A stretch of DNA of 20,256 nucleotides from a virus. Its lineage: Duplodnaviria > Heunggongvirae > Uroviricota > Caudoviricetes. The notes under the pieces were generated by a model. That model saw only the letters and a list, made by a program, of their open reading frames with translations. It did no database searches and was not told the DNA's origin. The position numbers and the translations under genes are program-made. Location: the IMG/VR virus record IMGVR_UViG_2734482531_000002; one strand, given 5' to 3'. Shown piece by piece: positions 4,308 to 19,297 of the stretch; positions within the stretch are counted from its first letter, which is position 1, and the number at the start of each line of letters is the position of its first letter.

Positions 4308-4582
4308 NNNNNNNNNNNNNNNNNNNNNNNNNNNNNNNNNNNNNNNNNNNNNNNNNNNNNNNNNNNNNNNNNNNNNNNNNNNNNNNNNNNNNNNNNNNNN
4401 NNNNNNNNNNNNNNNNNNNNNNNNNNNNNNNNNNNNNNNNNNNNNNNNNNNNNNNNNNNNNNNNNNNNNNNNNNNNNNNNNNNNNNNNNNNNNNNNNNNN
4501 NNNNNNNNNNNNNNNNNNNNNNNNNNNNNNNNNNNNNNNNNNNNNNNNNNNNNNNNNNNNNNNNNNNNNNNNNNNNNNNNNN
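4308..4582. other. Assembly gap (275 N)
   Basis: Uninterrupted run of n characters. It bridges the 3' end of K and the 5' end of I and creates artificial X-containing ORFs in the track. Confidence 0.98.
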
Positions 4583-6000: not shown

Positions 6001-8558
6001 CGTCCACCTCCGGAGAACAGGCCACCATCACGCATCTGTGTCTGAATTTCATCACGGGCACCCTTGCGGGCCATGTCATACACGGCCTTCATCATCTGTG
6101 GACCTGGCAGACCATTCGTACCGTCGTTCTGAATCACCACGTGATTGTTCTGATTAAAATTAATGCCTTCAGCCCGCCGCATCTGCGCCGGACTTCCGGC
6201 ACCGCCCACATAACCACCTTCCGCATAGCCGCGCATCAGCCGGTAGAGATTCCCCACGCCAATCCGGCTGGTTGCCTCCTTCGTGAAGACAAATTCACCA
6301 CGGTGAACAATCCCCGCTGGCTCATATTTGCCGCCGGTTCCCGTAAATCCCCCGGTTGCAAAATGGAATTTCACCGCAGCGGCCTGAATGGCTGTACCAC
6401 CTGACGCGGATGCGCCGCCACCAACAGCCCCGCCAATGGCGCTGCCGATACTCCCGACAATCCCCACCATTGCCTGCTTAAGCAGAATTTCTGTCATCAT
6501 GGACAGCACGGAGCGGGTGAAGCTGCGCCAGTTCTGTTCACTGCCGGTCAGCATCGCCGCCATATTCTGTGCAATACCATCAAAGGTCTGCGTGGCTGCA
6601 CTTTTAACCTGTGACATACTGTCCGTGGCGCTCTCTTCCCACTCACTCCAGCCGGACTTCAGGCCTGCCATCCAGCTCCCGCGAAGCTGGTCTTCAGCCG
6701 CCCAGGTCTTTTTCTGCTCTGACATGACGTTATTCAGCGCCAGAGGATTATCGCCATACTGTTCCTTCAGGCGCTGTTCCGTGGCTTCCCGCGCTGCCTG
6801 CCGGTCAGTCAGCCCCCGGTTTTTCGCATCAATGGCTGCCCGTTTTGCCCGTTGCTGCTGTGCGAATTTATCCGCCTGCTGCGCCAGCGCATTCAGGTGC
6901 TCCTGATACGTAACCTTGTCACCAAGTGCAGCCAGCTGGCGTTTGTACTCCAGCGTCTCGTCTTTATGCGCCAGCAGGGATTTCTCCTGTGCGGACAGCT
7001 GGCGACGTTGTGCCGCCTCCTCCAGTACCGCGAACTGACTTTCTGCCTTCCACAAATCCCGGCGCTGCTGGCTGATTTTCTCATTCGCTCCGGCATGCTT
7101 CTCCAGCGTCCGGAGTTCTGCCTGAAGCGTCAGCAGGGCCGCATGAGCACTGTCTTCCTGACGATCGCCCGCATACACCTTCACGCCGGACTGTTTCGGC
7201 TTTTTCAGCGTCGCTTCATAATCCTTTTTCGCCGCCGCCATCAGCGTGTTGTAATCTGCCTGCAGGATTTTTCCGTCTTTCAGTGCCTTGTTCAGTTCTT
7301 CCTGACGGGCGGTATATTTCTCCAGCGGCGTCTGCAGCCGTTCGTAAGCCTTCTGCGCCTCTTCGGTATATTTCAGCCGTGACGCTTCGGTATCGCTCTG
7401 CTGCTGCGCATTTTTGTCCTGTTGACGCTGTTGATCTACCCTCTTTTGGGCTGCATCCCGCTCCAGGCGTTTTTTTTCACGATCATCCCAGTAACGCGCC
7501 CGTGCTTCATCGTTAACGAAATAATCATCCTTGCGCAGATTCCAGATGTCGTCTGCTTTCTTAAACGCAGCCTCTGCCTTAATCAGCATCTCCTGCGCGG
7601 TATCAGGACGACCAATATCCAGCACCGCATCCCACATGGATTTGAATGCACGTGCAGTCCTGTCTGCCCAGGTCTCCAGCGTGCCCATGTTCTCTTTCAG
7701 GCGGCGGGTCTGGTCATCAAACCCTTTCGTTGCGGCCTCGTTCGCCGCCTGCAATGCCCCGGCTTCATCGCCGGAACGCTGCAACTGAGCAACATACGCA
7801 ATCTGCTCCGCCGTCACGTTATGGAACTGGCGTGCCATCGCCGTCAGCCCCGACGTCGGGTCTGTGGTCAGCTTCCCGAAGGCTTCAGCGACCTTGTCCA
7901 CCTCCACGCCGGATGCATAGGAGAAACGCGCCACACTCTGGCTGATGGACGCAATCTGAGCCTCACCGCTTACCCCCGCCTTAACCAGTGCGCTGAGTGA
8001 CTCGCTGGTCTGGTTAAACGTCAGCCCTGCCGCCTGCCCGGCTCTGGACAGGACCAGCATACGATCTGCCGTCAGTCCCGCCTGATTACCGGAAAGGACC
8101 AGCGTTTTGTTGAAATCGGACAGGGTTGAGTTGCCCTGATACCAGGCATACGCCAGCGCACCGGTCGCCACCGCCAGCGAGGTGGCCCCCACCATCGGCA
8201 GGGTGATCGCGCCGGCAAGCCCCCTGAACATGGGGATCATCCCGCCGAAGGAGTCCTTAACCTGACCACCCTGTTGCAGCAGGATCAGCCAGGGATTCTG
8301 CCCCCCTGCAAGCTGCGTGGCCACGTCGGTGAACTGTGCAGGCAGCATACGCATGGCGGCTTTATACTGCCCGACGGAAATCCCCGCTTTCTGTGCAGCC
8401 AGCGCCTGTCGGCTCAGCGACTGTTCAACGACTGCCGCTGTTTTTTTCGCATCACTTTCCGTACCGGAAAAATGACGCCTGACTCTGGCCATCTGCTCGT
8501 CAAATCTGGCCGCATCCAGACTCAAATCAACGACCAGATCGCCTACCGGTTCAGCCAT
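5997..8558 (-). CDS. H: Tail tape-measure protein H, 853 aa
   Basis: Full ORF of the same length as lambda gpH. Ala/Gln/Arg-rich coiled-coil centre and Gly-rich C-terminus. Overlaps the T frame at its 5' end. Confidence 0.96.
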   Translation of the reverse strand: MAEPVGDLVVDLSLDAARFDEQMARVRRHFSGTESDAKKTAAVVEQSLSRQALAAQKAGISVGQYKAAMRMLPAQFTDVATQLAGGQNPWLILLQQGGQVKDSFGGMIPMFRGLAGAITLPMVGATSLAVATGALAYAWYQGNSTLSDFNKTLVLSGNQAGLTADRMLVLSRAGQAAGLTFNQTSESLSALVKAGVSGEAQIASISQSVARFSYASGVEVDKVAEAFGKLTTDPTSGLTAMARQFHNVTAEQIAYVAQLQRSGDEAGALQAANEAATKGFDDQTRRLKENMGTLETWADRTARAFKSMWDAVLDIGRPDTAQEMLIKAEAAFKKADDIWNLRKDDYFVNDEARARYWDDREKKRLERDAAQKRVDQQRQQDKNAQQQSDTEASRLKYTEEAQKAYERLQTPLEKYTARQEELNKALKDGKILQADYNTLMAAAKKDYEATLKKPKQSGVKVYAGDRQEDSAHAALLTLQAELRTLEKHAGANEKISQQRRDLWKAESQFAVLEEAAQRRQLSAQEKSLLAHKDETLEYKRQLAALGDKVTYQEHLNALAQQADKFAQQQRAKRAAIDAKNRGLTDRQAAREATEQRLKEQYGDNPLALNNVMSEQKKTWAAEDQLRGSWMAGLKSGWSEWEESATDSMSQVKSAATQTFDGIAQNMAAMLTGSEQNWRSFTRSVLSMMTEILLKQAMVGIVGSIGSAIGGAVGGGASASGGTAIQAAAVKFHFATGGFTGTGGKYEPAGIVHRGEFVFTKEATSRIGVGNLYRLMRGYAEGGYVGGAGSPAQMRRAEGINFNQNNHVVIQNDGTNGLPGPQMMKAVYDMARKGARDEIQTQMRDGGLFSGGGR

Positions 8559-14682: not shown

Positions 14683-18363
<3,681 letters not shown>

Positions 18364-18933: not shown

Positions 18934-19046
18934 AGAAAGGAAACGACAGAGGCCAAAAAGCCCGTTTTCAGCACCTGTCGTTTCCTTTCTTTTCAGGGGG
19001 TGTTTTAAATAAAAACATTAGGTTACGGCGAAGAAGAACGGAAACG
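18934..19046. promoter_or_regulatory. cosB: terminase (gpNu1) binding elements R1, R2, R3 with intervening IHF-site region
   Basis: Three copies of the R-element core (minus-strand sense CTGTCGTTTCCTTTCT-like): 18934-18949 and 18975-18990 form an inverted pair, and a third copy sits at ~19031-19046 (CGTTTCCGTTCTTCTTCG on the minus strand). They lie between the Nu1 start and cosN as in lambda cosB. Confidence 0.75.
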
Positions 19047-19086
19047 CCTTAAACCGGAAAATTGTCATAAATAGCGAAAACCCGCG

Positions 19087-19098
19087 CGCCTTCCGCCC
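19087..19098. other. cosN (12-nt cohesive-end / terminase nicking site); minus-strand sense GGGCGGAAGGCG
   Basis: Flanks align with the lambda left and right ends: CCCGCG on the Nu1 side and CGTAACCTGTCGGATC.CCGGAAAGGACCCG on the right-arm side. The 12 nt between them occupy the cosN position. Confidence 0.7.
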
Positions 19099-19297
19099 CG
19101 TAACCTGTCGGATCGCCGGAAAGGACCCGCAAAATGATAATAATTATCATCTACATGTCACAACGTGCATCTACGCCATCAAACCACGTCAAATAATCAA
19201 TTATGACGCAGGTATCGTATTAATTGATCTGCATCAACTTAACGTAAAAACAACTTCAGACAATACAAATCAGCGACACTGAATACAGGGCAACCTC

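Follow-up and report, generated by a model that had tools for sequence, protein, structure and literature searches.

The cosN nicking site of phage lambda is rotationally symmetric yet functionally asymmetric, and its asymmetry depends on cosB (PMC4669245). Many mutations within the site's right half, bp 7-12, have a minimal phenotype, and C11G has none at all (PMC4669245, citing Xu and Feiss 1991 and Hang, Catalano and Feiss 2001). Its symmetric counterpart in the left half, G2C, lowers the yield about 10-fold (Xu and Feiss 1991, in PMC4669245). Tolerance of the right half is ascribed to anchoring of TerL by cosB-bound TerS, and the published data on it come from engineered single or double changes (PMC4669245). 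TerL of lambda gives equal yields with the cosN sites of lambda and N15, and a 2-bp mismatch between ends costs about 4-fold in yield (PMC4669245).

The right half also varies in nature. Phages phiD326 and N15 depart from the lambda sequence at bp 9 and 12, and Gifsy-1 departs from it at bp 8, 9 and 11 (PMC4669245). The same source concludes that selection acts on cosQ, on the left half and on the CG dinucleotides that flank cosN, but not on bp 7-12. Papers that cite Vahanian et al. (2017), PMC9303873 among them, give the same pattern, in which the initial 4 bp of cosN and 2 bp to either side are conserved. The cosN sequences of N15 and of mEp213/LLS are GGGCGGCGTCCG and GGGCGGCGCGCT, respectively.

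A variant cosN in a lambda background

The window studied here is the entire 20,256-nucleotide stretch of a Caudoviricetes record from IMG/VR (IMGVR_UViG_2734482531_000002). A segment of 401 nt around its cosN was aligned with lambda/DE3, in which the 12-mer is annotated as 'cos site', and with the relatives PhiR63_1, Turner and 2H10. All four carry GGGCGGCGACCT, which is the cohesive end that a first, sequence-only reading of the window had given for lambda. At the same position and spacing, the minus strand of the window reads GGGCGGAAGGCG (from 19098 to 19087), preceded by CCGACAGGTTACG and followed by CGCGGGTTTTCGCTATTTATG. The two 12-mers are therefore not identical: seven of 12 bases are equal, those at bp 7, 8, 9, 10 and 12 differ, and there are no indels. 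Direct comparison with NC_001416 returns the same five differences, exactly as the sequence-only reading had described them, with GGGCGG kept.

The substitutions leave the known conserved elements in place. Read through the site, the window has ACG, then GGGCGGAAGGCG, then CGCGGG, so that the left GGGC and the CG dinucleotide on each side are all retained. GC content is the same as in lambda (10/12). Two-fold rotational symmetry falls to 8 of 16 bp, from 10 of 16 bp in the canonical site. A canonical and a variant overhang could pair at only seven of their 12 positions, with the other five mismatched.

Away from cosN, about 2% of sites separate the window from its closest full-length relative. 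At this divergence, the expected frequency of changes at five of six adjacent positions is about 9e-6 over the region, which identifies the cluster as a block replacement rather than as scattered drift. Inversion of the right half was considered as a source of the block and set aside. The reverse complement of CGACCT, AGGTCG, equals AAGGCG at four of six positions, a match with a chance probability of about 0.04 before correction for multiple hypotheses.

Coordinates of the cos elements and terminase genes of the window
Feature	Position	Strand	Comparison with lambda and remarks
cosQ (GGGTCCT), packaging-termination element	19122..19128	minus	at -30..-24; identical to lambda
CG dinucleotide directly 5' of the top-strand nick	19099..19100	minus	conserved (PMC4669245; Vahanian et al. 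2017, as cited in PMC9303873)
cosN cohesive end, variant allele 5'-GGGCGGAAGGCG-3'	19087..19098	minus	position and spacing as for the annotated lambda/DE3 cos site
Left half of cosN, bp 1-6	19093..19098	minus	GGGCGG, as in lambda; the sequence-sensitive half (PMC4669245)
Right half of cosN, bp 7-12	19087..19092	minus	AAGGCG against CGACCT in lambda; 5/6 changed, C11 kept; adjoins the bottom-strand nick
CG dinucleotide, bp 13-14, just past the bottom-strand nick	19085..19086	minus	conserved (PMC4669245)
cosB R3 (lambda bp 50-65), critical gpNu1 binding site	19034..19049	minus	identical to lambda; equal distance to cosN
Rest of cosB (I1, R2 and R1 by lambda position), to the Nu1 start codon	18910..19033	minus	a few substitutions in the alignment
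Nu1, small terminase, 181 aa	18364..18909	minus	3 substitutions; Pfam Phage_Nu1, E = 2.4e-101
A, large terminase, cosN-nicking endonuclease, 641 aa	16464..18389	minus	4 substitutions, none allele-linked

The surroundings of the site are those of lambda itself. We take the GGGTCCT motif upstream to be cosQ, going by lambda coordinates 48,473-48,479. On the other side, there are no mismatches to lambda from bp 36 to bp 70 and no indels between cosN and R3, whose extent follows the published lambda coordinates (PMC9026076). With cosQ upstream, R3 at the lambda distance and intact Nu1 and A genes adjacent, the site is, as judged from its sequence, a member of the lambda-type cosQ-cosN-cosB family that carries a different cohesive-end allele. 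The description of gpA and gpNu1 as unchanged, made in the sequence-only reading, was nearly accurate: 4 of 641 and 3 of 181 residues, respectively, differ from lambda.

In the spacer between cosN and R3, lambda bp 35 is changed from A to C (GAAAAT to GACAAT; window position 19064). The same change is common to a subset of variant carriers and to one canonical carrier (locus L025). Searching the literature for the exact 12-mer and for its complement turned up no phage paper, within a range that reached neither the most pertinent survey (Vahanian et al. 2017, Virology 509:140) nor Feiss et al. (2015, PMC4461450).

Prevalence of the allele

Prevalence was assessed in 5,426 complete E. coli genomes with an exact 37-nt probe that comprises cosN and its right flank only. 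The variant GGGCGGAAGGCG occurs at 166 places in 155 of these genomes, including those of the ETEC strains H10407 and E24377A, and the canonical GGGCGGCGACCT occurs at 7,413 places in 4,101. The variant thus accounts for about 2.2% of lambda-type cos sites in complete E. coli genomes, and the canonical allele for about 98%. An estimate of six carriers among the 5,426 genomes was discarded as an artefact of query design. The query behind it was 106 nt long and took in the lambda-like flank on the cosQ side, whereas the right-flank probe gives 155.

Other collections also hold the allele. A probe of cosN and its right flank finds it in 78 IMG/VR contigs, and it is present in 31 metagenome contigs and in 23 PLSDB plasmids from E. 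coli, Shigella sonnei, E. albertii and E. fergusonii. YDC107_1 and PhiR46_1, phage records deposited in prophage order and not in cos order, carry it as well. A scan of species-representative genomes gave 11 matches, of which one is the variant (Escherichia sp. E1V33) and four are likely lambda contaminants.

Intermediates between the two alleles are scarce. Among 119 cos sites with lambda-like flanks, GGGCGGCGACCG and GGGCGACGACCT were each found at one locus and GGGCGTCAGGCG at two. Together with the roughly 98% share of the canonical allele, this scarcity hints that the right half is not entirely neutral or free to drift.

The sequence GGGCGTCAGGCG constitutes a third allele, in which AGGCG at bp 8-12 is the same as in the window, C7 is kept and bp 6 is changed. 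The last of these changes falls in the supposedly constrained left half. Its two loci are L129 (cosN from 5457, plus strand of the locus) and L143 (from 13612, in the reverse-complemented locus).

The canonical site also turns up in non-enteric assemblies, namely those of Raphidiopsis brookii D9, Aeromicrobium sp. PE09-221, Archangium violaceum Cb vi76 and an Alicyclobacillus fastidiosus plasmid (loci L219-L222). In three of the four, the flanks that were checked are those of lambda; the fourth, the Archangium contig, has another flank on the cosQ side. These occurrences most likely represent contamination with lambda or cosmid DNA.

Genetic backgrounds of the allele

The variant is found with 19 distinct 25-nt flanks on the cosQ side and beside three types of cosB and small terminase. 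The first type is the lambda cosB with Nu1. The second has a different cosB and, after it, a Nu1-family protein with a phage-21-like N-terminal DNA-binding region, which presumably matches that of phage 21 gp1. In the third, satellite-like type, a third cosB is followed by a divergent Nu1-family protein of 180 aa beside an AlpA-like gene, and an adjacent large terminase is absent. Carriers of this third type look like satellites or PICI-type elements. Several of the left flanks, and both the lambda-type and the 21-type cosB, occur with either allele, which indicates that the block has been shuffled among backgrounds.

In L154, L159 and 16 other IMG/VR loci, the small terminase is a chimera in which an N-terminal DNA-binding region like that of phage 21 gp1 is fused to a C-terminal half identical to lambda. 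In these loci it accompanies a non-lambda cosB together with a lambda-type gpA. In the satellite-like element L149 (cosN at about 4116), and also in L157, L194 and L199, the order is a divergent gene of the major-capsid-E family, an AlpA-like regulator, cos and then the 180-aa Nu1-family protein, and the variant cosN lies beside a cosB of its own.

The variant is strongly enriched in plasmid records, which hold 16 of its 166 places but 19 of the 7,413 canonical places (odds ratio 41.5, p = 4e-18). The plasmids in question are N15-like linear plasmid prophages with a protelomerase, the CyRepA1 replication protein, ParAB, telL/telR and a complete lambda-type virion module. Examples are NZ_CP101200.1 (L210) and PV340565.1 (L212), both of which have the lambda-type module of head, tail and terminase genes.

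Probable cleavage by an unmodified terminase

Full-length gpA proteins were compared between the two allele classes, 45 of them linked to the variant and 42 to the canonical site. Five identical proteins occur in both classes, so the same gpA is paired with either cosN. Because the changes in the window are confined to bp 7-10 and 12 and identical gpA accompanies both alleles, its cosN is one of the known class of tolerated right-half variants.

What was observed of the allele, that is its sequence, its prevalence, its contexts and the absence of terminase co-variation, fits best with one explanation: the window cosN is quite probably a functional natural allele that gives a different 12-nt overhang, with nick positions and packaging efficiency as we infer them from the lambda system. 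In such a system, gpNu1 would bind the unchanged R3 at the lambda spacing and position gpA. By homology, gpA would then make two nicks, one in the top strand 5' of G1 and the other between bp 12 and 13 of the bottom strand. Placement of the bottom-strand nick is expected to depend on cosB anchoring instead of base recognition, and the changes are confined to the cosB-proximal right half. Since they lie only where the nick is placed by anchoring, an unmodified lambda-type gpA should be able to cut the variant. In the predicted virion DNA, the left end has a 12-nt 5' overhang of GGGCGGAAGGCG and the right end one of CGCCTTCCGCCC, compared with GGGCGGCGACCT and its complement in lambda. Both ends would come from copies of the same cosN, so that they stay complementary and the genome should cyclise normally.

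A further proposal, which is speculative and rather improbable, concerns the rarity of such an allele. Canonical and variant sites might form separate cohesive-end compatibility classes, and selection for compatibility with the majority might hold the canonical allele at about 98% despite the mechanistic freedom of bp 7-12. If so, a chromosome with ends of different classes would probably fail to cyclise. Chromosomes of this kind could arise, for example, by recombination between co-resident lambda-like elements or by packaging across tandem elements. The same proposal would also explain why the variant is a discrete multi-base block with few intermediates. It would likewise account for concentration of the allele in N15-like plasmid prophages, followed by leakage into chromosomal prophages and satellite-like elements.

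Alternative explanations

The variant could instead inactivate or severely weaken cos cleavage, such that its carriers are packaging-defective cryptic prophages and the allele persists only through vertical transmission and through recombination of resident prophages with one another. Five simultaneous changes beside the bottom-strand nick go beyond the range of the published mutants, rotational symmetry is lowered, and the allele is a minority of about 2%. Furthermore, among the IMG/VR and metagenome contigs examined, none starts or ends exactly at the variant cosN. However, tolerance of the right half is published (PMC4669245), and the allele spans three packaging specificities, many flanks, several species, and both chromosomes and linear plasmid prophages. 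At 45 of 52 evaluable variant loci, cos is followed by an intact 641-aa gpA, as against 42 of 78 canonical loci (p = 1e-4), an excess that shows only that the variant does not mark decay, because the canonical set includes satellites and cryptic remnants.

The virion module of the window is also complete, which speaks against a defective element. Its genes Nu1, A, W, B, C, D, E, FI, FII, Z, U, V, G, T, H, M, L, I and J are co-linear with those for the proteins of PhiR46_1. The Nu1-to-J proteins align with these end to end at 81-100% identity, free of gaps except for a few in J and for K, which is interrupted by a run of N. The apparent defect in K is this 275-nt run at 4308-4582 and not a mutation. 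PhiR46_1 itself carries the variant allele. Its record names ECOR13 in the host field, holds a complete gene set and was deposited in telL-to-telR (prophage) order rather than in cos order. PhiR46_1 is presumably infective and plaque-forming, going by that host field, and a literature search found no paper that describes it. On balance, a defective site is an unlikely explanation for the variant, and the suggestion of a packaging-defective cryptic prophage in the sequence-only reading is not supported, in view of the many backgrounds, the intact gpA genes, the co-linear morphogenesis genes and the occurrence in PhiR46_1.

The stretch of PhiR46_1 that is homologous to the run of N measures about 370 nt, compared with 275 nt in the window. 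The run is thus a gap or mask of non-native length, and K looks truncated or frameshifted as a result.

A distinct nicking specificity that requires a co-adapted large terminase, making enzyme and site a matched pair, is very improbable. The one candidate for such co-adaptation is L404R in gpA (codon 404 of the window, 17178-17180). In a smaller comparison of 15 variant-linked and 41 canonical-linked proteins, this residue was seen only with the variant and in 0 of the 41. It is found in the window and in two other variant carriers, but most variant carriers keep L. In the larger comparison, residue frequencies differ by at most 0.19 between the classes, no position separates them, and residues 504, 509 and 515 are invariant across both. 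Substitutions at these three residues reportedly extend cosN specificity, in work by Arens and colleagues from 1999. The five gpA proteins that are identical in both classes likewise contradict a matched pair.

A local assembly or sequencing error, which was raised by the sequence-only reading and might draw on the run of N elsewhere in the source assembly, is refuted to near certainty, since 155 complete genomes and more than 130 further independent contigs of viral, plasmid and metagenome origin carry the same 12-mer with its register unchanged.

Significance

The finding is real and is explained by established biology; it represents neither a defect nor an artefact. Among the possibilities offered by the sequence-only reading, an altered cohesive end is the one that gains support. 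There was no good reason to call it unexpected, because bp 7-12 tolerate change and vary naturally without any change in terminase (PMC4669245).

The window allele is the most divergent right-half variant found in a true lambda background. It extends a known rule, by which sequence may vary freely in the cosB-proximal half of cosN but stays fixed in the left half and in the CG that flanks each nick, and it carries little weight for basic biology beyond this. It does have practical consequences. Searches for lambda-type termini that use GGGCGGCGACCT will overlook about 2% of the lambda-type cos sites of E. coli, a share that approaches half on N15-like plasmid prophages. Oligonucleotides meant to anneal to lambda cohesive ends will not fit variant phages. 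For the cosB-anchoring model of bottom-strand nicking, the allele further constitutes a natural five-base test.

Comparison with known systems

One of the closest described systems is the canonical lambda cosN. It shares with the window allele its position, the implied 12-bp stagger, the left half, the CG flanks, C11, the GC content and near-identical Nu1 and A proteins. It differs at bp 7-10 and 12 and has the higher rotational symmetry. Laboratory point mutants of cosN are engineered single or double changes, whereas the window has a natural five-base block that includes T12G, which abuts the nick.

The natural variants N15, phiD326, Gifsy-1 and mEp213/LLS resemble the window in that variation is restricted to the right half and the left half and flanking CG are kept. 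Individual bases are also held in common, with G at bp 12 in the window allele and N15, and G at bp 10 in the window allele and mEp213/LLS. In contrast, N15, phiD326, Gifsy-1 and mEp213 have two or three changed positions, compared with five in the window. Moreover, the packaging genes of N15, Gifsy-1 and mEp213 have diverged from those of lambda, whereas the terminase and cosB of the window are lambda's own (99% identical).
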